DNA of 64,000 nucleotides from Nannocystis sp. SCPEA4 (GTDB taxonomy: Bacteria > Myxococcota_A > Polyangia > Nannocystales > Nannocystaceae), in assembly GCF_026626685.1 (NCBI RefSeq), contig NZ_JAPNJX010000021.1, positions 169,329-233,328 of the forward strand, read 5' to 3'. The notes below the pieces were generated by a model. It worked only from the letters and a program-made list of their open reading frames with translations. It did not search any database and was not told the origin of the DNA. A program made the translations under genes and the position numbers. This document shows positions 21,547 to 51,192 of the stretch, piece after piece (position 1 is the first letter of the stretch; the number at the start of each line of letters is the position of its first letter).

Positions 21547-24500
21547 ATGAGCATGCACGACGAGAGCCGGGACGTTCGCGGGATCGAGCCGAGGTCGGAG
21601 CACAATGTCGCGGCGCAGCAGGATGCAGGCAGCCCCGACGCTGAAGAGGTGCTCCTCTGGGCCGCCGTGGCCGACCCGAACAGCCCGATCGGGCACCTGC
21701 CGCTGCTCGCCTCGGGCGAGCTGCGTCAGCTCGCGGTGTGGAACGACACGGCGGTGGCGTATCCGCCGGCGAGGTGCATCCACGAGTTGTTCGAGGACCA
21801 GGCCGCGCGGACGCCGGACGCGGTGGCCCTGGTGTTCGGCGACCAGCAGCTGACGTACCGCGAGCTCGACGAGCGCTCGAACCAGCTGGCCCATCATCTC
21901 CGCGGGCTGGGCGTGGGGCCGGAGGTGCTGGTCGGGCTGTGCGTCGAGCGCTCGCTCGAGATGCTCGTGGGGCTGCTGGCGATCCTCAAGGCGGGCGGCG
22001 CCTACGTGCCGCTCGACCCGAGCTATCCGCGCGAGCGCCTGGCCTTCATGCTGAACGACGCCCGACCCGCCGTGCTGCTCACGCAGGCGCGCCTGCGTGA
22101 CAGCCTTCCGGCGCACGAGGTGGTGGTCGTGCACCTCGATGCGCCCGCGTGGCAGCACCTGCCGCGTACGTCCCCTGCGGTCCACGTCGGGCCGGATCAC
22201 GCGATCTACGTCATCTACACGTCGGGCTCGACGGGACGACCCAAGGGCGTGCTCAACACCCATCGCGGGCTCTACAACCGCCTGCGCTGGATGCAGCGGG
22301 CCTACGGGCTCAACGCGAGCGACGCGATCCTGCAGAAGACGCCGCTGTCGTTCGACGTGTCCGGCTGGGAGCTGTGGTGGCCGCTGCTCGAGGGCGCCCG
22401 CATGGTGATCGCCGCGCCCGAGGGACACAAGGATCCGCGCTACCTCGCGGCCCTCATCGCGGCACGCGGCGTCACCGTGGCGCACTTCGTACCGTCGATG
22501 CTCGGCGTGTTCCTGGCGGCGACCGAGCCCAGAGAACGCGCGTCGCTGCGCCACGTCTTCGCCAGCGGCGAGGCGTTGCCGGGGCACTTGCGGGACGCCT
22601 GGTATGCGGGCAGCCGCGGCGCGCTCCACAACCTGTACGGCCCGACCGAAGCCGCGATCGACGTCACGAGCCATGCCTGCCAGGCCGAGGAGACGGGGCC
22701 GGTGCCGATCGGACGGCCGATCGACAACACCCGCACCTACGTGCTCGACGCTGCATTTCGCCCTGTCCCCGTCGGCGTCGCAGGAGAGCTGTATCTGGCG
22801 GGCGTGCAGCTCGCACGCGGCTACCTCGGCCGCCCCGGACTGACGGCGGAACGATTCGTGCCCGATCCGTTCGCGCCCGAGCCCGGCGCACGCATGTATC
22901 GCACCGGCGACCTGGCGCGCTTTCGCGACGACGGCGCGCTCGAGTTCCTCGGCCGCATCGACCACCAGGTCAAGATCCGCGGCTTCCGCATCGAGCTCGG
23001 CGAGATCGAGGCCGCACTCGCGGCGTACCCGTCGGTGCGCGACTGCGTGGTCGTGGCCCGGGAAGACGCGACCGGCGACAAGCGGCTGGTGGCTTACGTG
23101 GTCGGCGACGACGCCACGGCGAACGAGCTGCGAGCGTGGCTCGGCGCGAGGGTGCCGGAGTACATGGTCCCCTCGGCGTTCGTCTGCCTCGACGCCCTGC
23201 CGCTGAACCCCAACGGCAAGGTCGATCGCAAGGCCCTGCCTTCACCCGAAACGACCCGTGGTTCGGCAGAGACCTACGTGGCTCCGCGGACCGACGTCGA
23301 GCGCGCCCTCGTGGGCATCTGGGAAGAGCTGCTCGAGGTCCGCCCCATCGGCGTCAGCGACAATTTCTTCCTGCTGGGTGGTCATTCGCTCCTCGCCTTT
23401 CGCGTCGTATCGGCCGTCCAGGCGCGACTCGGGGGTGCGCCGAGCCTGGCCGCGCTGTTTCGCAATCCGACGATCGAGGCGCTGGCGGCTCTCTGGGACA
23501 CGAGGGCGGAGCGGCCGCAGATCGGCCTCTCGCCGCGAGCCGACGGCGAGGCGCCGTTCGCGGGCCTGTCGGGCACGGAGCGGCGCATCTGGTTCCTCGA
23601 AAAACTGTCGCCCCAGGCGCGGTCGTACCAGATCCCGCACGTGTTCGAGGTGGCGTCCGCGCTCTCTGCTCCGGCGCTCGAGGCGAGCGTGCGCGCGCTG
23701 GCATTGCGCCACCAGATCCTCCGCACGACCTATCCGGAGGTGGACGGCACGCCGCGGCGGGAAGTGTCCGACGACGTGTGGATCCCGATCCGCGTGGAGG
23801 ACGTCTCGTCGCTGCCCGCGGCGGAGCGCGATGCGGCGTTGCAGGCGATGCTCGCCGCGGAGGTGGAGGGCCGCTTCGACCTGGAGCGCGGGCCGCTGAC
23901 CCGTGTCCTGGCCGTAAGGACAGCCGCGGACCGGCACGTCGTCGTCGTGCATCAGCACCACATTATCACCGACGAGTGGTCCTGGGGGCTGCTGCTCGCG
24001 GAGCTCTCGTCCCTGTACGAAGCGTCGCGCCGCGGGGAGACGCTCGCGCTGCCTGCCCTCGCCTACCAGTACTCGGATTATGCGCGCGCAGAGCGGTCGG
24101 CGCTCGCGGGCGACGGGCTCGCGGCGTCTCGGGCCCACTGGAAGGAGGCCCTCTCCGACGTACCGCGGCTCGACCTCTCGATCGTCGCTCCCGCTGCGGG
24201 AGCGGTCTCGGGGCCCGAAGGGCATGTCTCGCTCCGGCTATCGCCGGAGACGAGCCGCCAGCTGCAGGCGCTCGCGCACGAACATGCCGCGACCCCTTTC
24301 ATGGCCTGGTATGCCGCCCTCTCGGCGGTGCTGTCGCGGTACAGCGGCCAGCAGGACTTCGGGCTCGGCGCGGTGGTCGCGAATCGCCAGATCGTCGGGA
24401 CCGAGGCGATGCTGGGGTTCTTCACCAACACCGTCGTGCTGCGGACCGACCTCTCGGGCGATCCGACGTTCGACGAGCTGCTCGCGCGGGCGCGGCGGAC

Positions 24501-27500
24501 TGCCCTCGATGCCTATGAGCATCAGGCGCTGCCGTTCGACGTCGTCGTGCAGGATCAGGGGCTGTCGCGGCAGGCCGGCGAGAATCCGCTGTTCGACGTG
24601 ACCTTCTTCGAGGTGACGCCGCCGACGGCAACGGCCGGCTGGTCACCGCGGCTCGGCGCGGTGCCGCAGGGCGTGACCACCGCCAAGAACGCGCTGGCCG
24701 TGACCGTGCAGCACACGGTCGAGGGGACCGTCGTCGAGGTCCTGTACGACACGACGCGCGTGTCGCGAACGGCGGCGGAGCGCCTGTGCGGGCATTTGCA
24801 GACTCTGGTGATTGACGCGGCTGCGCACCCGAACAGGCGGGTGTCGCAGTTGGAGCTGCTCACCGACGAGGAGACCGAGAAGCTCGCGGCGTGGAACGAC
24901 ACGCCGCGGACCGATCCTGCCGCGCGGTGCATTCACGAGTTGATCGCCGAGCAGGCGATCAGGGCACCGCAGGCTGTCGCGCTCGAGCAGGACGGGCTGC
25001 AGCTGAGCTACGGCGAATTCGAGGCGCAGGCCAATCGGCTGGCGCACCACCTGCGCTCGCTCGGCGTCGGGCCCGAGGTCCGCGTGGCCCTTTGTGTCGA
25101 GCGCTCCTTCGACATGGTCGTGGGTCTGGTCGCGATCCTGAAGGCGGGAGGCGCGTTCGTGCCGCTCGACCCGTCGTCTCCGCCGGACAGGCTCACGCTG
25201 CTGCTGACCGAGGCCGAGGCGCCGGTGCTGCTGACGCACGCGGCCGTCGGGCTCTCGGCGCCGGGCGTGACGGTCGTGCGGCTCGACGTCGATGCAGCGC
25301 AGTGGGCGTCGCAGCCCATCACCCCGCCCGAGAGCGGCGTGATGCCCGAACACGCGAACTACGTCGTCTTCACCTCGGGTTCGACCGGCAAGCCCAAGCC
25401 CGTGATCAACGAGCATCGCGGACTCGCCGCCCGCGTCGCGTTCCAGCGCCAGCACATCCCCGTCCATCCCGGCGATCGCATCCTCTTCAGCGCCGCGGTC
25501 GCCTTCGACGGCGCGATCGTCGACTGGATGCTCTCGCTGTGCAACGGCGCCACCTGCGTGTTGCCCAGCAACGCTTACGACGCCGTCGAGGGCATCGCCG
25601 AGTGCCTCGAACACCGCGCCATCACGTTCTCCTTCATCCCCCCCGCGATGTTGCGCGCGCTCCGCTGCCGCGCGCCGGCGCTGCGCCACATCACCCTCGC
25701 GGGCGACAAGACGCCACCATCCCTTGTGGCTCAGTGGGCCGGGGGCCGCCAGGTCCTCAATTCCTATGGCCCCACGGAGTTCAGCATCTTCGCCGCGCAG
25801 GCCTGGTTCGATCCGGCTCGGCCGGAGAGGTTCTCGATCGGCCGACCCGTGCACGGGGTGCACCTCTACGTGCTCGACGCCGCGAAGCGGCAGGTCCCGA
25901 TCGGCATGCCCGGTGAGATCCACCTCGCCGGGGTCGGCCTCGCGCGCGGCTATTTGAATCGCCCCGCCATGACGGCCGAGCGGTTCGTGCCGGATCCGTT
26001 CGCGAAGGAGCCGGGCGCCCGCATGTACTGCACCGGCGACCTCGCGCGCTGGAACGAGGATGGCGAGCTCGAGTTCCTCGGCCGCGCCGATCATCAGGTC
26101 AAGATCCGCGGCTTCCGTGTCGAGCTCGGCGAGGTCGAGGCGGCCCTCTCGTCGCACGCCGCGGTGGCGTCATGCGTCGTCGTCGCGCGAGAGGATGCCC
26201 CGGGGAACGTGCGCCTCGTCGCCTACGTGGTGGCGAAGGATGGCGCGCTCACCGTGGGCTCGCTGCGCGAGCACCTGCGCAGCAACCTGCCCGACTACAT
26301 GCTCCCGTCGGCGTTCGTCTTCCTCGACGCGCTGCCGCTGTCCGCCAACGGCAAGGTCGATCGCAAGACCCTGCCTGTTCCAAAAGACACGCGGCAGGCC
26401 GCGGAGACCTCGTACGCCGCGCCGCGCACGGAAGCGGAGCGAGCGCTCGCGGAGGTGTGGTCGGAGGTGCTGCGCGCCTCGTCGGTGGGGATCCACGACA
26501 ACTTCTTCTCGCTGGGCGGAGATTCGATCCTGGCGATCCAGGTGGTGGGACGGGCCAAGCGAGCCGGCTTGCACGTGACGGTGCGCGACATGTTCATGCA
26601 CCAGACGGTCGCGGAGCTGGTGCAGGTGGCGCGCAGATCGAGCGCAGCCGTGGCCGAGCAGGCGGTGACCGGCGCGGCCCTGCTGACGCCGAGCCAGCAG
26701 TGGTTCCTGGGCAAGAACCCCGAAGAGGCGCACCACTTCAATCAGGCCTGTATGTGGACGCCGTCGTCGGCGCTGTCGCCCGCGACGGTGGCCGAGGCGC
26801 TGCAGGTCGTATCGCGGCAGCACGACGCGCTGCGATTGCGATATGATCATACCGAGTCCGGATGGGTGCAGAGCCACGCGGAAGCGGTCGCGCTGCCGCT
26901 CGAGCGGATGGACCTCTCGACGGTGCCGCCCGACGTACGCAGGGCGGCCGTGGAGGTGTCGGCGGACGCATTGCAGAGCGGCCTGTCGCTGTCCGCGGGC
27001 CCGGTGGCCCGCGCGGTGTGGCTGGATCTGGGCGAGGAGGGCGCGCGGCTGCTGCTCGTCGTGCACCACCTCGTGGTCGACGGCGTGTCGTGGCGGATCT
27101 TGCACGAGGACCTCGAGCGCACCTGCGAGGCCCTGCTGGCGGGACGGACGCCGGAGCTCGCGGCCAAGACGACCTCGTTCCGGCAGTGGTCGGAGCGGCT
27201 GCACGCATTCGTCGCTGCCGGCGGCCTGTCGCAGGAGCTCGGCTTCTGGCGAGCTCGATGTGCGCGGGGCATCACGCCGCTGCCGCGGGACCGCGAGGCG
27301 GCGCCGGGCACGGTCGGAGACAGCCGCACGGTGGACGTGGAGCTGTCCGAGGCAGAGACCCGGGTGCTCCTTCACGACGTGAGCGCGGCCTACCGCACCG
27401 AGATCAATGATGTCCTGCTCTCGGCGCTCGCAGCGGCGCTGAGCGGGTTCTGCAACACGGACACGGTGTGCGTCACGCTCGAAGGGCATGGACGCGAGGC

Positions 27501-30500
27501 GCTGATCGAGGACGTCGATGTGTCTCGCACCGTCGGCTGGTTCACGTCGATGTTTCCGGTGTGGCTGACGGTTCCGGGGACCGACGATCCTGCGGCGCTG
27601 CTGAAGCGGGTCAAGGAACAGCTTCGATCGGTGCCGAACCGGGGCTTCGGATACGGCTGGCTGCGGTACGCGCACCCGGACGAGGCGGTGCGCGCCGCCC
27701 TCTCGGTGGAGCCGCCGGTGGTGTTCAATTACCTCGGGCAATTCGACATGGAGGCGCAGGGCCGGGGAATGCTCGGACCGGCGGCGGAGTCGGCGGGGAG
27801 GACCACGAGCTCGCGGATGGAGCTGTGGCACGCGCTGGCGGTGAACGGCGGCGTGTGGCAAGGACGACTGCGGTTCGAATGGACGTACAGCTCGGCGACC
27901 CACGACGGCGCGACGGTGGAGCGGCTCGCAGCTCGGTTCGTCGCCTCGCTGCGGCGACTCATCGCTCACTGCACGTCGAGCGAGGCGTTCGGCTACACGC
28001 CCTCGGACTTCCCGCTGGCTCGGCTCGGGCAGCAGGCCCTGGATGGGCTGTTCGCGGCCGCGCGCGACGTGGAGAGCGTCTACCCGCTCTCGCCGCTGCA
28101 GGCGGGGCTGTTGTTCCACGCCCTGAACGAGCCGGAGTCGCCGACCTACACCGTCCAGCTCGCGCTGCAGCTGGGAGGCGACGTCGACGCCGCGGCGCTC
28201 GAGAGCGCGTGGAAGACCGTGCTCGCGCGCCATGCGGTGTATCGGACGTCTTTCTTGTGGCAGGGCGTCCCGGAGCCGCTGCAGGTGGTGCGGCGGAGCG
28301 TCGCCTTCGCGATGCCGACGCACGACTGGTCCGCGCTGGACGCGGTCGAGGCGGAGGCGCGGTGGGAGGCCCTGCGGCGCGAGGAACGGGCGGCCGGCTT
28401 CGATTTCGGGCGGGCCCCGCTGGCGCGGGTCGTGCTCGTGCGCATGCCCGGAGGCCGGACGTGGATGCTGAAGACGACGCATCACATCCTGGCCGACGGC
28501 TGGTCGATGCCGGTCGTGCTCGGAGAGCTGCAGGCCGCCTATGCTGCGCACCGGGGCGGGCGCCGGCTCGCGCTGCCGGAGCCGGTGGCCTACGAGAGGT
28601 ACATCGCCTGGCTCGCGACGCGAGATCACAGGGCGTCGTCGGCGTTCTTCGCCGATTACCTGGCCGGCGTCGCGGAGCCGACGCGGCTGCCGTTCTCGCC
28701 GCCCACGGAGGCGACGCGGGAGCACGCGCAGCGTGACACCTCGCTGACCGCGGTCGAGACCGAGGCGGTCACGGCCTTCGCCCGGCGGCACGGGCTGACC
28801 TTGAACACGGTGGTGCAAGGGGCGCTCGCGCAGCTGCTCGGCCGTATCACGGGGCGGACGGATGTCGTCTTCGGCATGACGACGGCAGGTCGCAGCGCAC
28901 CGATCCGCGGCATCGAGCGGATGGTGGGCCTGTTCATCAACACGCTGCCGCTGCGGGCCCGGTGGTCCGGCTCGGAGGGCGTGGTCGAATGGCTGCAGCG
29001 GCTGCAAGCCGAGCAGGTGGAGCTGCGCGTCCACGAGGCGACCCCGCTGTACGAGGTGCAGCGCGCGAGCGCGGTGGGTGGAGGCCGCGCGCTGTTCGAC
29101 ACGCTCCTCGTGTTCGAGAACTACCCGGTGGACGAAGCGGCGCAGCAGGCCGCGGTCCTGCCGATCGAGAACTTCCAGGCGTTCGAGCAGACGAGCTACC
29201 CGCTCGCCATCACGGTGGCGGCCGGGACGACCATCGACCTGCGCTGGATGTGGGAACCCGCAGCGCTTCGCGGCGAAGACGTCGAGCAGCTCTGGGGAAA
29301 TCTGCGGACCGTCCTCCTCGACATGGTCGCGCACCCGGACAGGCGCCTGGCGGAGCTCGGCCTGTTGACGGCGGCGGAGTTACGTCAGCTCGCGGCGTGG
29401 AACGACACGGCAGTGGCGTATCCCACGGCGAGGTGCATCCACGAGCTGTTCGAAGAGCAGGCCGCGCGGACACCGGACGCGGTGGCCCTGGTGTTCGGCG
29501 AAAAGCAGCTGACGTACCGCGAGCTCGACGAGCGCTCGAATCAGTTGGCCCATCACCTCCGCGGGCTGGGCGTCGGCCCGGAGGTGCTGGTCGGGCTGTG
29601 CGTCGAGCGCTCGCTCGAGATGCTCGTCGGGCTGCTGGCGATCCTCAAGGCGGGCGGGGCGTACGTGCCGCTCGACCCGAGCTATCCGCGCGAGCGCCTG
29701 GCCTTCATGCTGACGGACGCCCGGCCCGCCGTGCTGCTCACACAGGCACGACTGCAAGACGGCCTTCCGGCGCACGCGGTCGTGACCGTGCTCCTCGATG
29801 CGCCCGCGTGGCAGCACCTGCCGCGTACGTCCCCTGCCGTCCACGTCGGGCCGGATCACGCGATCTACGTCATCTACACGTCGGGCTCGACGGGGCGGCC
29901 CAAGGGCGTGCTCAACACCCATCGCGGGCTCTACAACCGCCTGCGCTGGATGCAGCGAGCCTACGAGCTCAACGCGAGCGACGCGATCTTGCAGAAGACG
30001 CCGCTGTCGTTCGACGTCTCGGGCTGGGAGCTGTGGTGGCCGCTGCTCGAGGGCGCCCGCATGGTGATCGCCGCGCCCGAGGGCCACAAGGATCCGCGCT
30101 ACCTCGCGGCCCTCATCGCGGCACGCGGCGTCACCGTGGCGCATTTCGTACCGTCGATGCTCGGCGTGTTCCTGGCCGCGACGGAGCCCCGGGAGCGCGC
30201 GTCGCTGCGCCACGTGTTCGCCAGTGGCGAGGCCTTGCCGGGGCACTTGCGGGAGGCCTGGTATGCGGGCAGCCGCGGCGCGCTCCACAACCTGTACGGC
30301 CCGACCGAAGCTGCGATCGACGTCACGAGCCACGCCTGCCGGCCCGAGGAGACGGGGGCGGTGCCGATCGGACGGCCGATCGACAATACGCGCACCTACG
30401 TGCTCGACGCTGCATTTCGCCCTGTCCCCGTCGGCGTCGCAGGAGAGCTGTATCTGGCGGGCGTGCAGCTCGCACGCGGCTACCTGAGCCGCCCCGGGCT

Positions 30501-33500
30501 GACAGCGGAGCGATTCGTGCCCGATCCGTTCGCGCCCGAGGCGGGCGCCCGCATGTATCGCACCGGCGACCTGGCGCGCTTTCGCGACGACGGCGCGCTC
30601 GAGTTCCTCGGCCGCATCGACCACCAGGTCAAGATCCGCGGCTTCCGCATCGAGCTCGGCGAAATCGAGGCCGCACTCGCGGCGCACCCGTCGGTGCGCG
30701 ACTGCGTGGTCGTGGCCCGGGAAGACGCGACCGGCGACAAGCGGCTGGTGGCCTACGTGGTCGGTGACGACGCCACCGCGAACGAGCTGCGAGCGTGGCT
30801 CGGCGCGAGGGTGCCGGAGTACATGGTCCCCTCGGCGTTCGTCTGCCTCGACGCGCTGCCGCTGAACCCCAACGGCAAGGTCGATCGCAAGGCCCTGCCC
30901 TCCCCCGAGGCGACCCGCGGCGCGGACGAGACATTCGTGGCACCGCGGACCGAGGTCGAGCGCGCCCTGGTGGCGATCTGGGAAGAGCTGCTCGAGGTTC
31001 GCCCCATCGGCATCGACGACGACTTCTTCGCGCTCGGCGGCCACTCGCTCCTCGCGGTGCGCGTCGTGTCGGCGGTGAAGGCGAGGCTCGGGCTCGGGCT
31101 GACTCTGGCCACCTTGCTGCAGCGACCGACGGTGGCCGCCCTGGCGGCGTTGCTCGCCGAGATCGAGACGCGACCGGCGCCCGTGGCCGCGCTCTCACCC
31201 TCCCCGCGCGGCGCGGCCGAGCCCGCGTACGACGGCCTCTCGGGGACCGAGCGGCGGATCTGGTTCGTCGACAAGCTCGCGCCCGAGGCGCGGTCGTACC
31301 AGGTCCCGCACGTGTTCGTCGTCCGCGGGACGCTCTCGGAGCCGGCGCTGCGCGAGAGCGTGAAGCGACTCGCGGAGCGGCAGGAGATCCTGCGCACCAC
31401 CTATCCCGAGATGGACGGCGTGCTGACGCGAAGGGTGGCGAACAGCGTGTCGATCCCGCTGCGCCTGGAGGACGTCTCGGCGCTGTCCCAATCGGCGCGA
31501 GAATTCGCCTTGCGCGCCCACCTGGAGGCCGAGATCGCGGTCCCCTTCGATCTCGGGACCGGACCGCTGACACGCGTGCTGGTCGTGCGCCTGGAGGCCG
31601 AGCACCATGTCGTGCTCGTCCTTCAGCACCACATCATCACCGACGAGTGGTCCAGCGGGGTGCTGCTGTCCGAACTCTCGCGCCTGTACGAGGCGTGCTG
31701 CCGCGGCGAAGCGGCAGCGTTGCCGGCGCTCTCCTACCAGTTCGCCGACCATGCACGGGCGGAGCAGGAAGCCCTCACGAGCGGCGGCTTCGCGGCGTCG
31801 CGGGCCTACTGGAAGGACAGGCTCGCGGGCGTCCCGCGGCTGGAGCTGCCCATCGTGCGCACCGCCCCGGGGCGCGGCCCCGAGGCGAGCGTCGCGCTTC
31901 GCGTCCCGCTGGAGGCGAGCCGCGCCTTGCAAGCGCTCGCGCGCGACCACGGATGCACGCCCTTCATGGCCTGGTATGCCGCCCTCACGGCGGTGCTGTC
32001 GCGCTACAGCGGCCAGACGGACTTCGGTCTCGGCGCGGTGATTGCCAACCGCGAGGCGCCGGGCACGGCCGATCTGCTGGGATTCTTCACGAACACGGTG
32101 GCGCTGCGGACCGACCTCTCGGGCGATCCGACGTTCGCCGAGCTGCTCGCGCGGGCGCGGCGGACTGCCCTCGATGCCTATGAGCACCAGGCGCTGCCGT
32201 TCGACGTCGTCGTGCAGGATCAGGGGCTGTCGCGGCAGGCCGGCGAGAATCCGCTGTTCGACGTGACCTTCTTCGAGGTGACGCCGCCGACGGCCGACAC
32301 CGCGGCCGGCTGGTCGCCGCTCCTCGGCGCAGTGCCCCAGGGCCTGGCGACCGCCAAGAACGCGCTGGCCGTGTCCGTGCAGCACGCGACGGAGGGGACC
32401 GTCGTGGAGGTCCTGTACGACACCACACGCGTCTCACGAACGGCGGCCGAGCGGCTGTGCGGACACCTGCGGACGCTGGTGACCGACGCGGCGGCGCACC
32501 CGAACAGGCGGGTGTCGCAGCTCGATCTGCTGACCGACGAGGAGACCGAGAAGCTCGCGGCGTGGAACGACACGCCGCGGACCGATCCTGCCGCCCGTTG
32601 CATTCACGAGCTGATCGCCGAGCAGGCGATCAGGGCACCGCAGGCCGTCGCGCTCGAGCAGGACGGGCAGCAGTTGAGCTACGGCGAATTCGAGGCGCAA
32701 GCCAACCGGCTCGCGCACCACCTGCGCGCGCTCGGCGTCGGGCCCGAGGTCCGCGTGGCCCTTTGTGTCGAGCGCTCCTTCGACATGGTCGTGGGTCTGG
32801 TCGCCATCCTGAAAGCGGGAGGCGCGTTCGTGCCGCTCGACCCGTCGTCTCCGCCGGACAGGCTCTCGCTGCTGCTGACCGAGGCGGAGGCGCCGGTCCT
32901 GCTGACGCACGCGGACGTCCGGCTCTCGGCCCCGGGCGTGGCGGTGGTGCGGCTCGACGTCGATGCGGCGCAGTGGGCGTCGCTGCCCATCACCCCGCCC
33001 GAGAGCGGCGTGATGCCCGAGCACGCGAACTACGTCGTGTTCACCTCGGGTTCGACCGGCAAGCCCAAGCCCGTGATCAATGAGCATCGAGGACTCGCCG
33101 CCCGCGTGGCGTTCCAGCGCCAGCACATCCCCGTCCATCCCGGCGATCGCATCCTCTTCAGCGCCGCGATCGCCTTCGACGGCGCGATCGTCGACTGGAT
33201 GCTCTCGCTGTGCAACGGCGCCACCTGCGTGTTGCCCAGCAACGCCCACGACGCCGTCGAGGGCATCGCCGAGTGCCTCGAACACCGCGCCATCACGTTC
33301 TCCTTCATCCCCCCCGCGATGTTGCGCGTGCTCCGCTGCCGCGCGCCGGCGCTGCGCCACATCACCCTCGCCGGCGACAAGACGCCACCATCCCTTGTGG
33401 CTCAGTGGGCCGAGGGCCGCCGGGTCCTCAACTCCTATGGCCCCACCGAGTTCAGCATCTTCGCCGCGCAGGCCTGGTTCGATCCGTCGCGCCCGGAGAG

Positions 33501-36500
33501 GTTCTCGATCGGCCGGCCCGTGCATGGCGTTCGCCTCTACCTGCTCGACGCCGCGAAGCGGCAGGTCCCGATCGGCATGCCCGGTGAGATCCACCTCGCC
33601 GGGGTCGGCCTCGCGCGGGGTTATTTGCATCGTCCCGCCATGACGGCCGAGCGGTTCGTGCCGGATCCGTTCGCGAAGGAGCCGGGCGCCCGCATGTATT
33701 GCACCGGCGATCTCGCGCGCTGGAACGAGGACGGCGAGCTCGAGTTCCTCGGGCGCGTCGATCATCAGGTCAAGATCCGCGGCTTCCGGGTCGAGCTCGG
33801 CGAGGTCGAGGCGGCCCTCTCGTCGCACGCCGCGGTGGCGTCGTGCGTCGTCGTCGCGCGAGAGGATACGCCGGGGAGCCCGCGCCTCGTCGCCTATGTG
33901 GTGGCCAGGGACAGCGCGCTCGCGGCGACCGTGCTGCGCGAGCACCTGCGAAGCGACCTGCCCGACTACATGCTCCCGTCGGCGTTCGTCTTCCTCGACG
34001 CGCTGCCGCTGTCCGCCAACGGCAAGGTCGATCGCAAGGCCCTGCCCTCCCCCGAGGCGACCCGCGGCGCGGACGAGACATTCATGGCGCCCCGGACCGA
34101 GGTCGAGCGCGCCCTCGTGGCGATCTGGGAAGAGCTGCTCGAGGTCCGGCCCATCGGCATCGACGACGATTTCTTCGCGCTCGGCGGCCACTCGCTCCTG
34201 GCGGTGCGCGTCGCGTCTGCGGTGAAGACGAGGCTCGGGCTCGGGCTGACTCTGGCCACATTGCTGCAGCGGCCGACGGTGGCGGCCCTGGCGGCGTTGC
34301 TGGCCGAGACGGAGACGCGACCGACATCCGCGCTCTCTCCCTCCCCGCGCGGCGCGGCCGAGCCGGCGTACGACGGTCTCTCGGGGACCGAGCGGCGGAT
34401 CTGGTTCGTCGACAAGCTCGCGCCCGAGGCGCGGTCGTACCAGGTCCCCCACGTGTTCGTCGTCCGCGGCGCGCTCTCGGAGCCGGCGCTGCGCCAGAGC
34501 GTGAAGCAGCTCGCGGAGCGACAGGAGATCCTGCGCACCACCTATCCCGAGGTCGACGGCGTGTTGACGCGAAGGGTGGCAGACAGCGTGTCGATCCCGC
34601 TGCGCGTGGAGGACGTCTCGGCGCTGTCCGAATCGGCGCGGGAAGCCGCCTTGCGCGCCCACCTGGAGGCCGAAATCGCGGCCCGCTTCGATCTCGCGAC
34701 CGGACCGCTGACGCGCGTGCTGGTCGTGAGTCTGGAGGCCGAGCACCATGTCGTGCTCGTCCTCCAACACCACATCATCACCGACGAGTGGTCCAGCGGC
34801 GTGCTGCTGTCCGAGCTCTCGCGCCTGTACGAGGCGTGCTGCCGCGGCGAAGCGGCAGCGTTGCCGGCGCTCTCCTACCAGTTCGCCGACCATGCGCGGG
34901 CCGAGCAGGAGGCGCTCACGACCGGCGGCTTCGCGGCATCGCGGGCCTACTGGAAGGACAAGCTCGCGAGCGTGCCCCGGCTGGAGCTGCCCATCGTTCG
35001 TGCCGCTGCGGCGCGCGGCCCCGGCGTCGAGGCGAGCGTCGCGCTTCGCGTCCCGCTGGAGGCGAGCCGCGGGCTGCAGGCGCTCGCGCGCGCCCACGGA
35101 TGCACGCCCTTCATGGCCTGGTATGCCGCCCTCACGGCGGTGCTGTCGCGCTACAGCGGCCAGACGGACTTCGGGATCGGTGCCGTGATTGCCAACCGCG
35201 AGGTGCCGGGCACGGCCGAATTGCTGGGGTTCTTCACGAACACGGTGGTGCTGCGGACCGACCTCTCGGGCGATCCGACGTTCGCCGAGCTGCTCGCGCG
35301 GGCGCGGCGGACGGCGCTGGAGACCTATGAGCACCAGGCGCTGCCGTTCGACGTCGTCGTGCAGGATCAGGGGCTGTCGCGGCAGGCCGGCGAGAATCCG
35401 CTGTTCGACGTGACCTTCTTCGAGGTGACGCCGCCGACGACCGGCGCCGCGTCCGGCTGGTCACCGCTCCTCGACGGAGTGCCCACCGGCGTGGTGACCG
35501 CGAAGCAGGCGCTGGCGCTCGGCGTGCTGCATGACGCGGACGGGACCGAATTCTCCCTGACCTACGATACGACCCGCGTGGACGCCGGCGCGGTGGAGCG
35601 GCTCGGCAGGCACCTGCAGGTGTTGGTGCAGGACGGGGTGCTCCACCCGGACAGGCGCCTGTCGCAGCTGGACCTCCTGACGGAGGCGGAGCAGGCGAAG
35701 CTCGCGGCGTGGAACGACACGGCGGCAGCCTATCCCGCAGAGAGGTGCGTCCACGAGCTGTTCGAGGCGCAGGCCCGGCGGACGCCGGCCGCCGTGGCGC
35801 TGGTGTTCGGCGAACAGCAGCTGACCTATCAGGAGCTCGACGAGCGCTCGAACCAGCTGGCCCATCACCTGCGCGAGCTGGGCGTCGGCCCGGAGGTGCT
35901 GGTGGCGCTGTGCGTCGAGCGGTCGCTCGAGATGGTGGTGGGGCTGTTGGGGATCCTGAAGGCGGGCGGGGCCTACGTGCCGCTCGACCCGAGCTATCCG
36001 CAAGAGCGGCTGACATTCATGCTGACGGACGCGCGGCCGGCCGTGCTGCTCACGCAGGCGCGCCTGCGAGACAGCCTTCCGCCGCGCGAGGTCGTGACCG
36101 TGCACCTCGACGCGGGCGCGCCCGTGTGGCAGCAGCCGCGCACGTCCCCCGCAGTCGCCGTGGCGCCGGACCACGCGAGCTACGTGCTGTACACGTCGGG
36201 TTCGACGGGGCGGCCCAAGGGCGTCCAGATCCTGCACGCCGCGCTGACGAACCTGCTGCATGCCTTCGCCGAGCAGACGGCGATCGGGCCCCGGGACGCG
36301 CTGCTGGCCGTGACCTCGATGTCGTTCGACATCGCCGGGCTCGAGCTGTTCATGCCCCTGATCCGGGGGGCCTCGATCCACCTGGCGTCCCGCGACGACG
36401 CGAGCAACGGCGAAGCGCTGGTGCGCGCCCTCGATCGCGCGACGATGATGCAGGCGACGCCGGCGACCTGGCGCATGGTGCTGGACGCTGGCTGGACGGG

Positions 36501-38817
36501 TGAGAGGCCGCTGCAGGTGCTGTGCGGCGGGGAGGCGATGACGCCGGATCTGGCGGTCGAGCTGGCGCGCAGGGCATCCCCGGTGTGGAACGTGTATGGG
36601 CCGACCGAGACGACGATCTGGTCCGCGCTCTCTCGCGTCGACTCCGGACGGAGTCCCGTCCGGCTCGGTCGAGGGATCGCCAATACGCAGCTCCACGTGG
36701 TCGACAAGAACCTGAGGCAGACGCCGGTGGGCGTCCCGGGCGAGCTGTACATCGGGGGAGACGGGCTCGCGCGCGGCTATTTGGGCCGGCCCGCACTGAC
36801 AGCGGAGCGCTTCGTGCCCGACCCGTTCTCCGCCGTGCCCGGGGCGCGGATGTACCGCACGGGCGACCTCGTCCGCTGGGACGCGAACGGAGCGCTGGAG
36901 TTTCTCGGGCGCATCGATCACCAGGTCAAGATCCGCGGCTTCCGCATCGAGCTCGGGGAGATCGAGGCGGTGCTGTCGTCGCACCCGTGCGTGCGCGCGT
37001 GCGCCGTGGTCGTGTGGGAACCTGCGCCCGGTGACAGGCGCCTGGTCGCGTACGTGGTGCCCGGCGAGAGTGGATGCACCGACGATGCATTGCGCGAGCA
37101 CCTCGGGGCCGCGCTGCCGCCGTACATGGTCCCCTCGCTGTTCGTGCGGCTCACGGCGCTGCCGCTGAGCCCCAGCGGCAAGGTGGACCGCAAGGCCCTG
37201 CCGCCGCCCGACGCGACGCGCGACGCGGTCGAGACGTCCTGCGTGGCGCCGCGGACCGAGGCCGAGCGCGTGCTCGCCGAGCTGTGGTCAGCGGTGCTGC
37301 AGCGCTCGCCGCTCGGGATCCACGACAACTTCTTCTCGCTCGGAGGGGACTCGATCCTGGCGATCCAGGTGATCGGTCGCGCGAAGCGAGCCGGCTTCCA
37401 TCTCACGGCACGCGACATGTTCACGCATCAGACGGTGGCCCAGCTCGCGCTGGTGGTCCGCAGAGACAGCGCGGTGCTGGCGGAGCAAGAAGCCGTCCGC
37501 GGAACGGTGCCGCTGACGCCGATCCAGCACTGGTTCCTCGATGGGGACCCGGTGGACGCCCATCACTACTGCCCGGCGATGCGCTGGACGCCGCCGCCCG
37601 CGCTCTCGCCCGAGATCGCCGCAGAGGCGCTGCGGATCGTCGCGGCGCAGCATGACGCGGTGCGGTTGCGGTATCGTCGCAGCGCGTCCGGGTGGGTTCA
37701 GGAGCACGAGGCGGGGGCGACCCTCGTGCTCGAGCGGGTCGATCTGTCGGCGTTGGATCGCCCGGCCCGCGACGCCGCGGCGACCGAGGCGGTGGCGCGG
37801 CTGCAACGCGGCATGAATCTGTCCAGCGGCCCGATCTGCCGCGCTGCGTGGCTGGACCTGGGCGAAGGCGGCGCGCAGCTGGTTCTCGTCATGCACCACC
37901 TCGTCACGGACGGCCTGTCGTGGCGAATCGTGTGCGAGGACCTGCAGCACACCTGCGATGCGCTGCTCGCCGGGCGGACACCGGAGCTCGGGCCGAAGAC
38001 GACGTCCCTCCGCCAGTGGTCCGAGCGACTGCACGCGTTCATCGCCGGCGGCGGCCTGTCGCAGGAGCTCGAGTACTGGCAGGCGCAGTGCGCTCGTCGC
38101 ATGACTCCGCTCGTGCGAGATCGTGACTGCGCGCCGGGGACCTTCGGCGACAGCCGCACCGTGAAGGTGGAGCTCTCGCCGGCAGATACCAGCGCACTCC
38201 TCCGCGCCGTGGGCTCGACGCAGGGAACGGAGATCGACGCGGTCCTGCTGTCGGCCCTCGCCTCCGCGCTGAGCGGCGCCTCCGCGACAGATACGGTCTG
38301 CGTGGCGCTGCAGCACCACGGTCGCGAGCCAGTCGTGGCAGACGTGGACGTGTCCCGCACTCTGGGATGGTTCTCGTCGCTGTTCCCGCTGTGGCTGAGC
38401 GTGCTGCCGGGCTGCGACCCTGCGGTGCTGCTGAACGACGTGAAAGCGCAGCTGCGGTCCGTGCCCGGCCGGGGCCTCGGATACGGCTGGCTGCGGTACG
38501 CGCATCCGGACGCGAGTGTGCGCGCGTCGCTGTCCGTACCGATGCCGGTGGTGTTCAACTACCTCGGGCAGTACGAGGCAGGCTCGCCCTGGTCCTTCGA
38601 CGGGACCGAGCATACGAGCATCAGCCCGAACATGGCGCTTTATCATGAGCTCGTGGTGAGTTGCATCGTGGTGGACGGGCGACTGCGGCTCGGCTGGAGC
38701 TTCAGCAGCGCTGTCTATGAGAGCTCGACGATCGAGCGGATCGCGGAGGCGTTCCTCTCGTCGCTGCGGCGACTCATCGCCTACTGCACCTCGGGGGAGG
38801 ACACGTCTTGGAATTGA
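21547..38817 (+). CDS. Nonribosomal peptide synthetase, 5756 aa, 5 modules: A-T / C-A-T-E / C(DCL)-A-T / C-A-T / C-A-T-E; no TE domain
   Basis: The five A domains carry the A-domain core motifs (YTSGSTG.PKG, NxYGPTE, GELxIxG). The T domains carry GGHSL or GGDSI. The C domains carry HHxxxDEWS. The E domains carry HHLVxDGxSWR after the GGDSI carriers. Partial Stachelhaus reading gives A1/A3 as D-V-W..L-I-D (Ser-like), A5 as D-I-L..V-I-W (Gly-like), and A2/A4 as an unusual D-G-V..S-I-F (unassigned). A1 is ~identical to A3, and C2-A2 is ~identical to C4-A4. Confidence 0.95.
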   Translation: MSMHDESRDVRGIEPRSEHNVAAQQDAGSPDAEEVLLWAAVADPNSPIGHLPLLASGELRQLAVWNDTAVAYPPARCIHELFEDQAARTPDAVALVFGDQQLTYRELDERSNQLAHHLRGLGVGPEVLVGLCVERSLEMLVGLLAILKAGGAYVPLDPSYPRERLAFMLNDARPAVLLTQARLRDSLPAHEVVVVHLDAPAWQHLPRTSPAVHVGPDHAIYVIYTSGSTGRPKGVLNTHRGLYNRLRWMQRAYGLNASDAILQKTPLSFDVSGWELWWPLLEGARMVIAAPEGHKDPRYLAALIAARGVTVAHFVPSMLGVFLAATEPRERASLRHVFASGEALPGHLRDAWYAGSRGALHNLYGPTEAAIDVTSHACQAEETGPVPIGRPIDNTRTYVLDAAFRPVPVGVAGELYLAGVQLARGYLGRPGLTAERFVPDPFAPEPGARMYRTGDLARFRDDGALEFLGRIDHQVKIRGFRIELGEIEAALAAYPSVRDCVVVAREDATGDKRLVAYVVGDDATANELRAWLGARVPEYMVPSAFVCLDALPLNPNGKVDRKALPSPETTRGSAETYVAPRTDVERALVGIWEELLEVRPIGVSDNFFLLGGHSLLAFRVVSAVQARLGGAPSLAALFRNPTIEALAALWDTRAERPQIGLSPRADGEAPFAGLSGTERRIWFLEKLSPQARSYQIPHVFEVASALSAPALEASVRALALRHQILRTTYPEVDGTPRREVSDDVWIPIRVEDVSSLPAAERDAALQAMLAAEVEGRFDLERGPLTRVLAVRTAADRHVVVVHQHHIITDEWSWGLLLAELSSLYEASRRGETLALPALAYQYSDYARAERSALAGDGLAASRAHWKEALSDVPRLDLSIVAPAAGAVSGPEGHVSLRLSPETSRQLQALAHEHAATPFMAWYAALSAVLSRYSGQQDFGLGAVVANRQIVGTEAMLGFFTNTVVLRTDLSGDPTFDELLARARRTALDAYEHQALPFDVVVQDQGLSRQAGENPLFDVTFFEVTPPTATAGWSPRLGAVPQGVTTAKNALAVTVQHTVEGTVVEVLYDTTRVSRTAAERLCGHLQTLVIDAAAHPNRRVSQLELLTDEETEKLAAWNDTPRTDPAARCIHELIAEQAIRAPQAVALEQDGLQLSYGEFEAQANRLAHHLRSLGVGPEVRVALCVERSFDMVVGLVAILKAGGAFVPLDPSSPPDRLTLLLTEAEAPVLLTHAAVGLSAPGVTVVRLDVDAAQWASQPITPPESGVMPEHANYVVFTSGSTGKPKPVINEHRGLAARVAFQRQHIPVHPGDRILFSAAVAFDGAIVDWMLSLCNGATCVLPSNAYDAVEGIAECLEHRAITFSFIPPAMLRALRCRAPALRHITLAGDKTPPSLVAQWAGGRQVLNSYGPTEFSIFAAQAWFDPARPERFSIGRPVHGVHLYVLDAAKRQVPIGMPGEIHLAGVGLARGYLNRPAMTAERFVPDPFAKEPGARMYCTGDLARWNEDGELEFLGRADHQVKIRGFRVELGEVEAALSSHAAVASCVVVAREDAPGNVRLVAYVVAKDGALTVGSLREHLRSNLPDYMLPSAFVFLDALPLSANGKVDRKTLPVPKDTRQAAETSYAAPRTEAERALAEVWSEVLRASSVGIHDNFFSLGGDSILAIQVVGRAKRAGLHVTVRDMFMHQTVAELVQVARRSSAAVAEQAVTGAALLTPSQQWFLGKNPEEAHHFNQACMWTPSSALSPATVAEALQVVSRQHDALRLRYDHTESGWVQSHAEAVALPLERMDLSTVPPDVRRAAVEVSADALQSGLSLSAGPVARAVWLDLGEEGARLLLVVHHLVVDGVSWRILHEDLERTCEALLAGRTPELAAKTTSFRQWSERLHAFVAAGGLSQELGFWRARCARGITPLPRDREAAPGTVGDSRTVDVELSEAETRVLLHDVSAAYRTEINDVLLSALAAALSGFCNTDTVCVTLEGHGREALIEDVDVSRTVGWFTSMFPVWLTVPGTDDPAALLKRVKEQLRSVPNRGFGYGWLRYAHPDEAVRAALSVEPPVVFNYLGQFDMEAQGRGMLGPAAESAGRTTSSRMELWHALAVNGGVWQGRLRFEWTYSSATHDGATVERLAARFVASLRRLIAHCTSSEAFGYTPSDFPLARLGQQALDGLFAAARDVESVYPLSPLQAGLLFHALNEPESPTYTVQLALQLGGDVDAAALESAWKTVLARHAVYRTSFLWQGVPEPLQVVRRSVAFAMPTHDWSALDAVEAEARWEALRREERAAGFDFGRAPLARVVLVRMPGGRTWMLKTTHHILADGWSMPVVLGELQAAYAAHRGGRRLALPEPVAYERYIAWLATRDHRASSAFFADYLAGVAEPTRLPFSPPTEATREHAQRDTSLTAVETEAVTAFARRHGLTLNTVVQGALAQLLGRITGRTDVVFGMTTAGRSAPIRGIERMVGLFINTLPLRARWSGSEGVVEWLQRLQAEQVELRVHEATPLYEVQRASAVGGGRALFDTLLVFENYPVDEAAQQAAVLPIENFQAFEQTSYPLAITVAAGTTIDLRWMWEPAALRGEDVEQLWGNLRTVLLDMVAHPDRRLAELGLLTAAELRQLAAWNDTAVAYPTARCIHELFEEQAARTPDAVALVFGEKQLTYRELDERSNQLAHHLRGLGVGPEVLVGLCVERSLEMLVGLLAILKAGGAYVPLDPSYPRERLAFMLTDARPAVLLTQARLQDGLPAHAVVTVLLDAPAWQHLPRTSPAVHVGPDHAIYVIYTSGSTGRPKGVLNTHRGLYNRLRWMQRAYELNASDAILQKTPLSFDVSGWELWWPLLEGARMVIAAPEGHKDPRYLAALIAARGVTVAHFVPSMLGVFLAATEPRERASLRHVFASGEALPGHLREAWYAGSRGALHNLYGPTEAAIDVTSHACRPEETGAVPIGRPIDNTRTYVLDAAFRPVPVGVAGELYLAGVQLARGYLSRPGLTAERFVPDPFAPEAGARMYRTGDLARFRDDGALEFLGRIDHQVKIRGFRIELGEIEAALAAHPSVRDCVVVAREDATGDKRLVAYVVGDDATANELRAWLGARVPEYMVPSAFVCLDALPLNPNGKVDRKALPSPEATRGADETFVAPRTEVERALVAIWEELLEVRPIGIDDDFFALGGHSLLAVRVVSAVKARLGLGLTLATLLQRPTVAALAALLAEIETRPAPVAALSPSPRGAAEPAYDGLSGTERRIWFVDKLAPEARSYQVPHVFVVRGTLSEPALRESVKRLAERQEILRTTYPEMDGVLTRRVANSVSIPLRLEDVSALSQSAREFALRAHLEAEIAVPFDLGTGPLTRVLVVRLEAEHHVVLVLQHHIITDEWSSGVLLSELSRLYEACCRGEAAALPALSYQFADHARAEQEALTSGGFAASRAYWKDRLAGVPRLELPIVRTAPGRGPEASVALRVPLEASRALQALARDHGCTPFMAWYAALTAVLSRYSGQTDFGLGAVIANREAPGTADLLGFFTNTVALRTDLSGDPTFAELLARARRTALDAYEHQALPFDVVVQDQGLSRQAGENPLFDVTFFEVTPPTADTAAGWSPLLGAVPQGLATAKNALAVSVQHATEGTVVEVLYDTTRVSRTAAERLCGHLRTLVTDAAAHPNRRVSQLDLLTDEETEKLAAWNDTPRTDPAARCIHELIAEQAIRAPQAVALEQDGQQLSYGEFEAQANRLAHHLRALGVGPEVRVALCVERSFDMVVGLVAILKAGGAFVPLDPSSPPDRLSLLLTEAEAPVLLTHADVRLSAPGVAVVRLDVDAAQWASLPITPPESGVMPEHANYVVFTSGSTGKPKPVINEHRGLAARVAFQRQHIPVHPGDRILFSAAIAFDGAIVDWMLSLCNGATCVLPSNAHDAVEGIAECLEHRAITFSFIPPAMLRVLRCRAPALRHITLAGDKTPPSLVAQWAEGRRVLNSYGPTEFSIFAAQAWFDPSRPERFSIGRPVHGVRLYLLDAAKRQVPIGMPGEIHLAGVGLARGYLHRPAMTAERFVPDPFAKEPGARMYCTGDLARWNEDGELEFLGRVDHQVKIRGFRVELGEVEAALSSHAAVASCVVVAREDTPGSPRLVAYVVARDSALAATVLREHLRSDLPDYMLPSAFVFLDALPLSANGKVDRKALPSPEATRGADETFMAPRTEVERALVAIWEELLEVRPIGIDDDFFALGGHSLLAVRVASAVKTRLGLGLTLATLLQRPTVAALAALLAETETRPTSALSPSPRGAAEPAYDGLSGTERRIWFVDKLAPEARSYQVPHVFVVRGALSEPALRQSVKQLAERQEILRTTYPEVDGVLTRRVADSVSIPLRVEDVSALSESAREAALRAHLEAEIAARFDLATGPLTRVLVVSLEAEHHVVLVLQHHIITDEWSSGVLLSELSRLYEACCRGEAAALPALSYQFADHARAEQEALTTGGFAASRAYWKDKLASVPRLELPIVRAAAARGPGVEASVALRVPLEASRGLQALARAHGCTPFMAWYAALTAVLSRYSGQTDFGIGAVIANREVPGTAELLGFFTNTVVLRTDLSGDPTFAELLARARRTALETYEHQALPFDVVVQDQGLSRQAGENPLFDVTFFEVTPPTTGAASGWSPLLDGVPTGVVTAKQALALGVLHDADGTEFSLTYDTTRVDAGAVERLGRHLQVLVQDGVLHPDRRLSQLDLLTEAEQAKLAAWNDTAAAYPAERCVHELFEAQARRTPAAVALVFGEQQLTYQELDERSNQLAHHLRELGVGPEVLVALCVERSLEMVVGLLGILKAGGAYVPLDPSYPQERLTFMLTDARPAVLLTQARLRDSLPPREVVTVHLDAGAPVWQQPRTSPAVAVAPDHASYVLYTSGSTGRPKGVQILHAALTNLLHAFAEQTAIGPRDALLAVTSMSFDIAGLELFMPLIRGASIHLASRDDASNGEALVRALDRATMMQATPATWRMVLDAGWTGERPLQVLCGGEAMTPDLAVELARRASPVWNVYGPTETTIWSALSRVDSGRSPVRLGRGIANTQLHVVDKNLRQTPVGVPGELYIGGDGLARGYLGRPALTAERFVPDPFSAVPGARMYRTGDLVRWDANGALEFLGRIDHQVKIRGFRIELGEIEAVLSSHPCVRACAVVVWEPAPGDRRLVAYVVPGESGCTDDALREHLGAALPPYMVPSLFVRLTALPLSPSGKVDRKALPPPDATRDAVETSCVAPRTEAERVLAELWSAVLQRSPLGIHDNFFSLGGDSILAIQVIGRAKRAGFHLTARDMFTHQTVAQLALVVRRDSAVLAEQEAVRGTVPLTPIQHWFLDGDPVDAHHYCPAMRWTPPPALSPEIAAEALRIVAAQHDAVRLRYRRSASGWVQEHEAGATLVLERVDLSALDRPARDAAATEAVARLQRGMNLSSGPICRAAWLDLGEGGAQLVLVMHHLVTDGLSWRIVCEDLQHTCDALLAGRTPELGPKTTSLRQWSERLHAFIAGGGLSQELEYWQAQCARRMTPLVRDRDCAPGTFGDSRTVKVELSPADTSALLRAVGSTQGTEIDAVLLSALASALSGASATDTVCVALQHHGREPVVADVDVSRTLGWFSSLFPLWLSVLPGCDPAVLLNDVKAQLRSVPGRGLGYGWLRYAHPDASVRASLSVPMPVVFNYLGQYEAGSPWSFDGTEHTSISPNMALYHELVVSCIVVDGRLRLGWSFSSAVYESSTIERIAEAFLSSLRRLIAYCTSGEDTSWN

Positions 38818-41196: not shown

Positions 41197-41232
41197 GAAT
41201 CGATGCCGTCGTACGCCGCTGGCCGAGCGGGC

Positions 41233-42791: not shown

Positions 42792-42797
42792 CGTCTC

Positions 42798-51188: not shown

Positions 51189-51192
51189 GCGC

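Follow-up and report, generated by a model that had tools for sequence, protein, structure and literature searches.

Epimerisation (E) domains of non-ribosomal peptide synthetases (NRPSs) rely on two acid/base residues, one of which is E892 in GrsA and E882 in TycA (PMC8905534). A second point of reference is the DUF6875 family, which a 2025 preprint renames cytochrome P422 and describes as haem enzymes with a thiolate ligand, active as hydroxylases of free L-Trp at N1, C6 or C7, with a haem-ligand motif RxGxVCP and the substrate motifs Rx(M/L)x3Dx2F, Dx2(Q/H)x3K and MxGxF. The same source places P422 genes often within NRPS clusters, and its supplement lists Ne015 (A0A1I2HNG7, Nannocystis exedens, 237 amino acids (aa)) as a '6-OH' enzyme (bioRxiv 10.64898/2025.12.11.692455). 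Here we analyse a 64,000-nucleotide (nt) stretch of contig NZ_JAPNJX010000021.1 of Nannocystis sp. SCPEA4, referred to as the window, in which a large NRPS gene directly precedes a P422 gene. Taken as a whole, we consider it on balance probable that the locus is an eight-gene cluster built around an intact five-module NRPS and directed to a 6-hydroxytryptophan (6-OH-Trp) peptide, that the internal repeats of the NRPS are old and have been converted, and that its last domain is derived from an E domain and is evolutionarily maintained.

The NRPS is encoded in one intact reading frame of 5756 aa in the open reading frame (ORF) list, in a window of approximately 70% GC. Pfam annotation of the protein returned five AMP-binding, AMP-binding_C, five PP-binding and six Condensation-superfamily domains, and no other domain types. 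Adenylation (A), thiolation (T, with the GGxS serine) and condensation (C, HHxxxD) domains recur in module order, and reading of the motifs, together with an alignment in which the six C/E domains were set against the E domain of GrsA, gave A-T / C-A-T-E / C-A-T / C-A-T / C-A-T-E (Table 1). The five modules and the domain order of a preliminary description, made from the DNA letters, are thereby borne out, as is its statement that the protein has no cis release domain: neither Pfam nor motif reading of the 5756 aa revealed a thioesterase (TE), a reductase (R) or a terminal C domain. The first E domain, E1, is canonical, with intact HHxxxDG and EGHGRE motifs, a GGDSI-type T domain upstream and a C domain downstream, which was earlier assigned to the DCL type from HHILADGWS, an assignment that the N-terminal LSPLQAGLLFH motif corroborates. 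Both T domains that precede an E domain (T2 and T5) are of the GGDSI type, whereas T1, T3 and T4 read GGHSL; the difference between T4 and T2 pointed out previously is thus real, and is part of a mosaic. A feature absent from that first description is the motif HHIITDEWS in C2, C4 and C5, with DE where DG is expected. It was rejected as the mark of a dehydrating C_modAA domain or another special C domain, since the best PDB matches of C2 are the ordinary, LCL-type C domains of Txo1, Txo2 and TycC (E = 6e-57 to 2e-47) and AmbE matches at only 2e-12, and since C5 carries the same motif yet follows a non-Ser module.

Orthologous gene models in five other genomes span 5717-5866 aa. One Nannocystis representative protein (P0376, 5717 aa) matches this domain order and is 89.8% identical, and the gene models of Polyangium fumosum, Polyangium sp. 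6x1 and Sorangium sp. So ce1036 measure 5848, 5760 and 5866 aa, respectively. Over its N-terminal 2650 aa, the P. fumosum protein reads A(Ser)-T-C(HHIITDEWS)-A(DGIFTASIFK)-T-E(EGHGRE)-C(DCL), the same order as in the window, and its E1 shows the features listed above. The NRPS is ordinary in kind; it is the termination module that is unusual.

The last domain, here denoted E2*, retains PIQHWF, HHLVTDGLSW, RTLGWF and FNYLGQ, is 59% identical to E1 and finds its top PDB matches in the E domains of PvdL, TycA, GrsA and TycB (E = 4e-77 to 2e-55). Together with the specificity code of A5, these motifs substantiate the earlier observation of an E-type domain (HHLVTDGLSWR) on a Gly module. In place of EGHGRE, E2* reads QHHGRE, and its Gln aligns with E892 of GrsA and E882 of TycA, as judged from the alignment with PvdL and a 139-residue spacing from the His. 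This Gln is present in E2* of all 7 Nannocystis, 5 Polyangium and 1 Sorangium sequences examined, and the Gly of HHxxxDG drifts to Ile or Ala in Polyangium and Sorangium. Of the 330 E domains surveyed, drawn from the 150 best representative proteins, 270 have EGHGR, with nearly all others also keeping the Glu. Gln at this position was confined to the E2* family, and two domains of a single protein (P0379) carried Gly or Thr. The dN/dS of E2* (0.22-0.36) is similar to that of C5, a domain called active; E2* is under purifying selection and is not decaying. It is also deprived of the surroundings of an epimerase, in that A5 specifies Gly, which offers no chiral substrate, and neither a downstream domain nor a COM tail is present to deliver a D-residue to an acceptor. 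E2* may still exchange protons, stereochemically without consequence on Gly. In combination, these observations describe an E-derived domain with no stereocentre to invert, which would either serve directly in chain release or provide a trans-acting release factor with a docking or structural element. We tentatively raise, with low confidence, the further suggestion that E2* represents a new functional class of the C/E superfamily, either an off-loading catalyst for hydrolysis or cyclisation of the Gly-thioester or a one-base enzyme acting to activate Gly at its C-alpha. It would then take the place of a thioesterase in a family of myxobacterial hydroxy-Trp peptides; after export, the product would be cross-linked or polymerised by a dedicated lipoprotein laccase.

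The preliminary description had called the route of chain release unclear, and this judgement stands: no TE, TE of the penicillin-binding protein (PBP) type or reductase was found among the window genes scanned. Two Polyangium loci encode a type II thioesterase (PF00975, 248-249 aa, GHSMGG; L045 8451-9200 and L047 8456-9202, both on the minus strand), which lies with a second DUF697 gene between the MbtH and NRPS genes, directly upstream of the latter. Both additional genes are absent from the Nannocystis window, and among named relatives the type II TE of Jahnella sp. MSr9139 comes closest to the thioesterase (72% identical). Release by a stand-alone TE acting in trans, encoded in the cluster in Polyangium and elsewhere in the genome in Nannocystis, with E2* a mere scaffold, is therefore a real possibility, albeit one that we do not favour. 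Such off-loading of TE-less NRPSs in trans is established, for example by PBP-type TEs (PMC11735501). Still, the Polyangium TE has no homologue in the window (tblastn E > 0.9), and no Nannocystis protein is found among its 120 best homologues, down to 44% identity. Moreover, type II TEs are mostly editing enzymes, and a scaffold sits uneasily with an E2* that is constrained as strongly as catalytic domains.

The start codon of the P422 gene, a TTG, lies 7 nt downstream of the sequence GGGAGGA and overlaps the stop codon of the NRPS gene. The relatives of the P422 gene assign the window to Nannocystis, and an actinomycete origin, considered on account of the GC content, was rejected. The encoded P422 protein has the same sequence as WP_267689131.1 (Nannocystis sp. 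SCPEA4), matches PF21780 in Pfam with E = 3e-51 and contains all four family motifs (Table 1); a PDB search with the protein gave no relative. The gene was also considered as a candidate release enzyme, and was rejected as a member of a haem-dependent Trp hydroxylase family. The enzyme listed as Ne015 is the N. exedens orthologue, found in locus L001, and is 96% identical to the window P422, which is accordingly designated a putative Trp 6-hydroxylase by virtue of an assay on this orthologue. Beyond the myxobacteria, Methylobacter, Nocardia, Mycobacterium, Croceicoccus, Sphingomonas and a Fibrobacteria metagenome-assembled genome (loci L012, L015, L019-L022, L026, L028, L029, L032-L035, L037, L040-L042) likewise have P422 genes a few kb at most from NRPS A or C domains; the A-domain codes recovered there are unrelated to that of A2 and A4.

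Stachelhaus codes were read from a MAFFT alignment in which a gap at positions 330/331 was corrected by hand from the GPTE anchor. A1 and A3 share one code, indicative of Ser, A2 and A4 share a second, DGVFTASIFK, and the code of A5 corresponds to Gly (Table 1). The A4 code is identical in all Nannocystis orthologues and reads DGIFTASIFK in Polyangium; a literature search for DGVFTASIFK gave no match. Given that the orthologous P422 was assayed as a Trp 6-hydroxylase, residue X, loaded by A2 and A4, is probably 6-OH-Trp, an assignment built on gene adjacency and that assay. The alternative, in which X is unmodified Trp or a different large hydrophobic residue and the P422 product serves another pathway or a later modification of the peptide, appears rather unlikely to us. 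It draws on the unmatched code, on the unrelated codes of the A domains near P422 genes in other phyla, and on the P422 assays, which used free Trp only (bioRxiv 10.64898/2025.12.11.692455). Conversely, the overlap of the P422 gene with the NRPS stop codon and its retention in the cluster in three genera, despite changes in gene order, tie the enzyme to this assembly line, and the preprint proposes that P422s of NRPS clusters supply hydroxy-Trp building blocks (bioRxiv 10.64898/2025.12.11.692455).

With X as 6-OH-Trp, the predicted product is probably L-Ser-D-6OHTrp-L-Ser-L-6OHTrp-Gly. The Ser and Gly positions of the Ser-X-Ser-X-Gly peptide put forward initially are thus retained. The D-configuration that it assigned to residue 5 is not, since Gly is achiral; in the terminal E-type domain, moreover, the conserved EGHGRE Glu is missing. 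A literature search for known myxobacterial hydroxy-Trp peptides gave nothing relevant. The predicted L N-terminus and Gly C-terminus, together with an NRPS that has no TE, conform to the substrate rule of WolJ-type enzymes (PMC11735501; PMC7459860), and a PBP-type (beta-lactamase-fold) cyclase could in principle join the L-Ser amine to the C-terminal Gly and yield a head-to-tail cyclic pentapeptide. We nevertheless regard this route as improbable, as no beta-lactamase-family gene was detected among the window genes scanned, nor any such cyclase among the genes called or scanned in the Polyangium and Sorangium loci, and PBP-type cyclases have so far been described from actinomycetes.

The NRPS is the core of an eight-gene cluster at approximately 19.1-45.4 kb of the window, uncharacterised but widely conserved in myxobacteria. 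Genes for the multicopper oxidase, the NRPS, the P422, one or more ABC transporters, the MbtH-like protein, the DUF697 protein, the Band_7 protein and the SBP_bac_11-like protein co-occur in Nannocystis, Polyangium and Sorangium, in an order that differs between the three genera. Orthologues of the oxidase (73-90% identity) lie in the NRPS clusters of Nannocystis pusilla, Polyangium and Sorangium; a multicopper oxidase of Sorangium So ce1099 (60% identical) does not adjoin an NRPS and was discarded as a cluster orthologue. Also set aside were a small ORF at 21336-21545 as an MbtH gene upstream of the NRPS, as it has no Pfam match and the MbtH gene is that at 41233-41613, and the upstream genes for an M16 peptidase, a PDZ protein and a 732-aa protein of no assigned function, which are absent from the loci fetched from the other genera. 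The oxidase is a predicted lipoprotein exported by the twin-arginine translocation (Tat) system, as suggested by a Tat motif and a lipobox that were read by eye. From these motifs it should act outside the cytoplasm, on the exported peptide, and hydroxyindoles would be plausible laccase substrates.

A biosynthetic sequence consistent with this gene set would begin with the translationally coupled P422 haem enzyme, which would hydroxylate free L-Trp at C6. Aided by the MbtH-like protein, the NRPS would then load Ser, X, Ser, X and Gly, X being probably 6-OH-Trp; E1 would invert residue 2, and the DCL-type C3 would accept the D-residue, so that the chain on T5 would be L-Ser-D-6OHTrp-L-Ser-L-6OHTrp-Gly. 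Following release from T5 the peptide would be exported by the ABC transporter, and its hydroxyindoles would probably be oxidised outside the cytoplasm by the multicopper oxidase.

The internal repeats of the NRPS, measured by self-BLAST and sliding-window alignments within the window, form a mosaic with sharp edges. A1 (21.77-23.20 kb) and A3 (29.43-30.86 kb) are 95.2% identical overall (93-99% in sliding windows over 21.75-23.2 kb), the C-terminal part of C2 with A2 (24.45-26.20 kb) is 94.6% identical to the corresponding part of C4 with A4 (85-99% by sliding windows over 24.3-26.2 kb), and T3 with the N-terminal part of C4 (30.86-32.27 kb) is 93.7% identical to T4 with the N-terminal part of C5 (88-97%). 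Conversely, T1 with the N-terminal part of C2 (23.3-24.25 kb) is only 54-75% identical to T3 with the N-terminal part of C4, and T2-E1 and T5-E2* are approximately 70% identical. The blocks described as nearly identical in the preliminary description are thus real, at an identity of about 93-95% rather than in full, and the C2-A2 block, placed there from 23.95 kb, truly starts at approximately 24.3 kb. One breakpoint of the converted blocks falls within the C-terminal part of the C domain and one at the A10/T boundary.

The age of the repeats was addressed by comparing the copies in the window with those of N. pusilla, block by block. Paralogous blocks within a genome are 94-95% identical (one block 90% in N. 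pusilla), orthologous blocks between the two genomes 90-93% and paralogous blocks across species 90-91%, while the non-converted segment comprising T1 and the N-terminal part of C2 is approximately 70% identical between paralogues and 91-92% between orthologues. That paralogues are closer than orthologues in both lineages points to concerted evolution by gene conversion rather than to a single recent duplication, and the divergence of the non-converted segment to an old module arrangement. The comparison thus indicates that the Ser and X units of this old arrangement have been kept alike by ongoing gene conversion. The sharp-edged blocks at 93-99% DNA identity had first been read as young copies, arisen by recent tandem module duplication with a swapped carrier domain, which we now consider very unlikely: in addition to the identities above, the five-module layout and the gene size are common to Nannocystis, Polyangium and Sorangium, and no sign of independent gain in the relatives, such as different breakpoints, was seen.

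Transfer of the D- or Gly-terminated chain to a further NRPS subunit, as from TycA or GrsA via COM domains, would be in line with the frequency of E-terminated proteins (31 of the 330 surveyed E domains are terminal). However, E2* ends in ...CTSGEDTSWN, 9 residues past the E-domain core, without a TPSDF motif, a donor helix or a COM tail, and the tails are not conserved among orthologues, contrary to what a transfer of the COM type would lead one to expect. In none of the three genera does the cluster include an NRPS gene whose first domain is C, and as many as 26 of the 31 terminal E domains have exactly EGHGR and 4 others keep the Glu or a variant of EGHGR, so that a hand-over to a second synthetase is highly unlikely.

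The preliminary description had also warned that the kb-scale repeats might have been collapsed or expanded during assembly. A homologue search with the NRPS N-terminus returned only fragments of at most 1120 aa, unusable for module counting; one match (P0008) led to the N. pusilla locus L044, situated on a 12.7-Mb contig. This locus is collinear with 21.28-40.79 kb of the window (19.5 kb, the whole NRPS) at 91.4% identity with 88 gap positions, and has the multicopper oxidase upstream of the NRPS, as in the window. In both N. pusilla long-read assemblies (L011 and L044) frameshifts split the NRPS into many short gene calls, the DNA being collinear with the window; these are probably sequencing errors rather than a sign of pseudogenisation. 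Six Nannocystis loci are collinear with 28.8-41.6 kb of the window or beyond, at 89-95% identity, and the last three modules (the last 10 kb) are collinear without change in length in N. punicea (complete genome), N. exedens (11.3-Mb contig) and three other Nannocystis. Since the same five-module gene occurs in other genomes, the module number is not an assembly artefact; a different true number, for which one could cite the frameshifts and the short-read Polyangium assemblies that break inside the gene (L006 begins at a contig end, L007 1.3 kb from one), is barely credible in view of this collinearity and of the gene models of similar length.

Several points weigh against the overall interpretation. 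The cluster is without a known product, the A2/A4 code is without a verified match, and the link to 6-OH-Trp consists of gene adjacency and an orthologue assay from a preprint. The role given to the multicopper oxidase derives solely from conserved linkage. Release in Nannocystis is unexplained by the genes scanned, and the type II TEs of the two Polyangium clusters leave room for a trans-acting TE elsewhere in the Nannocystis genome. Finally, the E892A variant of GrsA retains approximately one sixth of its activity (PMC8905534), and the exchange of Glu for Gln is thus no proof that E2* is inactive.

Two further gene sets were noted in the window (Table 1). Positions 1-9600, mostly on the minus strand, hold a set resembling aryl-polyene or lipid clusters, and positions 49800-63000 a set resembling those for ribosomally synthesised and post-translationally modified peptides (RiPPs). 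In addition, two ORFs upstream of the oxidase gene display a strong coding signal (GC at the third codon position 0.89-0.92) without any Pfam match, and were not found in the related clusters of the other genera. The longer of the two, at 16350-18548, is exceptionally GC-rich at the second codon position (0.63), pointing to a low-complexity protein rich in Ala, Pro and Gly.

Table 1. Features of the NRPS, its cluster and the remainder of the window (positions in the window)
Feature	Position	Strand	Remarks
NRPS gene	21547..38817	+	Five modules, A-T / C-A-T-E / C-A-T / C-A-T / C-A-T-E*; ORF list, Pfam, motifs
A1	21790..23226	+	Code DVWHFSLIDK (Ser); DNA ~95% identical to A3
T1	23299..23496	+	GGHSL
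C2	23548..24891	+	LCL-type, HHIITDEWS; against C4, N-terminal part 54-75%, C-terminal part from ~24.3 kb 85-99%
A2	24949..26361	+	Code DGVFTASIFK, no match for code; proposed 6-OH-Trp
T2	26443..26625	+	GGDSI, E-partner type
E1	26659..27996	+	Canonical epimerisation domain: HHLVVDGVSW, LEGHGRE, FNYLGQ, TPSDFP linker
C3	28069..29376	+	DCL-type: N-terminal LSPLQAGLLFH, HHILADGWS
A3	29449..30885	+	Code DVWHFSLIDK (Ser)
T3	30964..31155	+	GGHSL
C4	31219..32556	+	LCL-type, HHIITDEWS
A4	32614..34032	+	Code DGVFTASIFK
T4	34105..34302	+	GGHSL (C-partner type)
C5	34360..35697	+	LCL-type, HHIITDEWS
A5	35764..37188	+	Code DILQLGVIWK (Gly)
T5	37264..37455	+	GGDSI
E2* (terminal E-type domain)	37498..38814	+	HHLVTDGLSWR; LQHHGRE in place of LEGHGRE
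DUF6875 / cytochrome P422	38808..39521	+	237 aa; TTG start overlaps NRPS stop; RKGSVCP, DPVQQALK, MIGQF, RPMQLTDLMF
Multicopper oxidase	19094..21037	+	PF07731 and PF07732; Tat motif DRRGFLR and lipobox LTGC after ATG 19094
ABC transporter	39562..41232	-	Fused membrane and ATPase domains, presumed exporter
MbtH-like protein	41233..41613	-	
DUF697 protein	41753..42586	+	Cluster-conserved in all three genera
SPFH/Band_7 protein	42792..43781	+	Cluster-conserved
SBP_bac_11 solute-binding-like protein	43789..45408	-	Cluster-conserved; 37-41% identity in Polyangium and Sorangium
MMPL	2-1249		1-9600 set
LolA-like	1279-2157		1-9600 set
Aromatic amino-acid lyase	2413-4152		1-9600 set
LpxL-like acyltransferase	3939-4982		1-9600 set
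GT2	4983-6020		1-9600 set
AMP-ligase and ApeI-like dehydratase fusion	5809-8289		1-9600 set
ACP	8320-8718		1-9600 set
SDR/KR	8018-9562	+	1-9600 set
ORF	9737-11527	+	Strong coding signal, no Pfam match
ORF	16350-18548	+	Strong coding signal, no Pfam match
JmjC/cupin	49833-51188		RiPP-like set
GNAT	51193-51687	-	RiPP-like set
HlyD	51816-52985		RiPP-like set
C39-peptidase ABC transporter	52993-55707		RiPP-like set
Second ABC ATPase	55700-57817		RiPP-like set
NosD-like beta-helix	57883-58845	-	RiPP-like set
B12-binding radical SAM	59577-61958		RiPP-like set
MbnB/TglH/ChrH-family	61781-62914		RiPP-like set

The cluster thus stands out by a probable 6-OH-Trp building block, the concerted evolution of its modules and a conserved, altered terminal E-type domain. 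It ties the just-described P422 Trp 6-hydroxylase family to a concrete conserved assembly line, with a testable prediction of a Ser/6-OH-Trp/Gly pentapeptide, and offers a clean natural case in which NRPS modules evolve in concert and the breakpoints are defined, of relevance to NRPS engineering. Furthermore, a conserved and selectively maintained E-type domain that is incapable of ordinary epimerisation makes TE-less NRPS release experimentally approachable in this system.

Compared with known systems, the P422 protein agrees with the described Trp hydroxylases in its PF21780 match, in all four motifs, in having the Trp 6-hydroxylase Ne015 as its orthologue and in its location in an NRPS cluster; the part of the preprint available to us contains no account of this myxobacterial cluster, its NRPS or its product (bioRxiv 10.64898/2025.12.11.692455). 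The synthetase resembles those of tyrocidine and gramicidin S in its A-T-C modules, in the GGDSI-type T domain before an E domain, in the motifs of E1 followed by a DCL-type C domain, and in the use of an MbtH helper. It differs from them in having no TE, R or terminal C domain, and in a last domain that is of the E type, located on a Gly module, and that carries Gln for Glu. To the surugamide and desotamide NRPSs (SurE, WolJ, Ulm16) it is akin in the lack of a cis TE, an L N-terminus, a D or Gly C-terminus and a Trp-rich peptide (PMC11735501, PMC7459860). Here, however, the host is a myxobacterium, the scanned genes of the window and related clusters include no beta-lactamase-fold cyclase, and the terminal E-type domain is without its Glu.

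Members of the C/E superfamily have been encountered at the end of assembly lines before. CroK-C2 of crocacin biosynthesis in the myxobacterium Chondromyces is reportedly a hydrolytic C-like release domain (Mueller et al. 2014), and like the fungal terminal C_T cyclisation domains it ends a TE-less assembly line; the likeness to E2* is positional only, as CroK-C2 and C_T are C-type domains whereas E2* is clearly E-type by sequence. We know of no E-type domain with demonstrated release activity. The X domain of glycopeptide NRPSs, a degenerate C/E-like domain, is said to recruit cross-linking P450 enzymes (Haslinger et al. 2015), and the two systems share an altered C/E-superfamily domain in the last module, an oxidisable aromatic peptide and oxidative enzymes encoded in the cluster. 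E2*, by contrast, retains an intact HH motif and is not followed by a TE; the P422 would act on free Trp, and the oxidase, as a predicted Tat-exported lipoprotein, would be unable to meet the NRPS.

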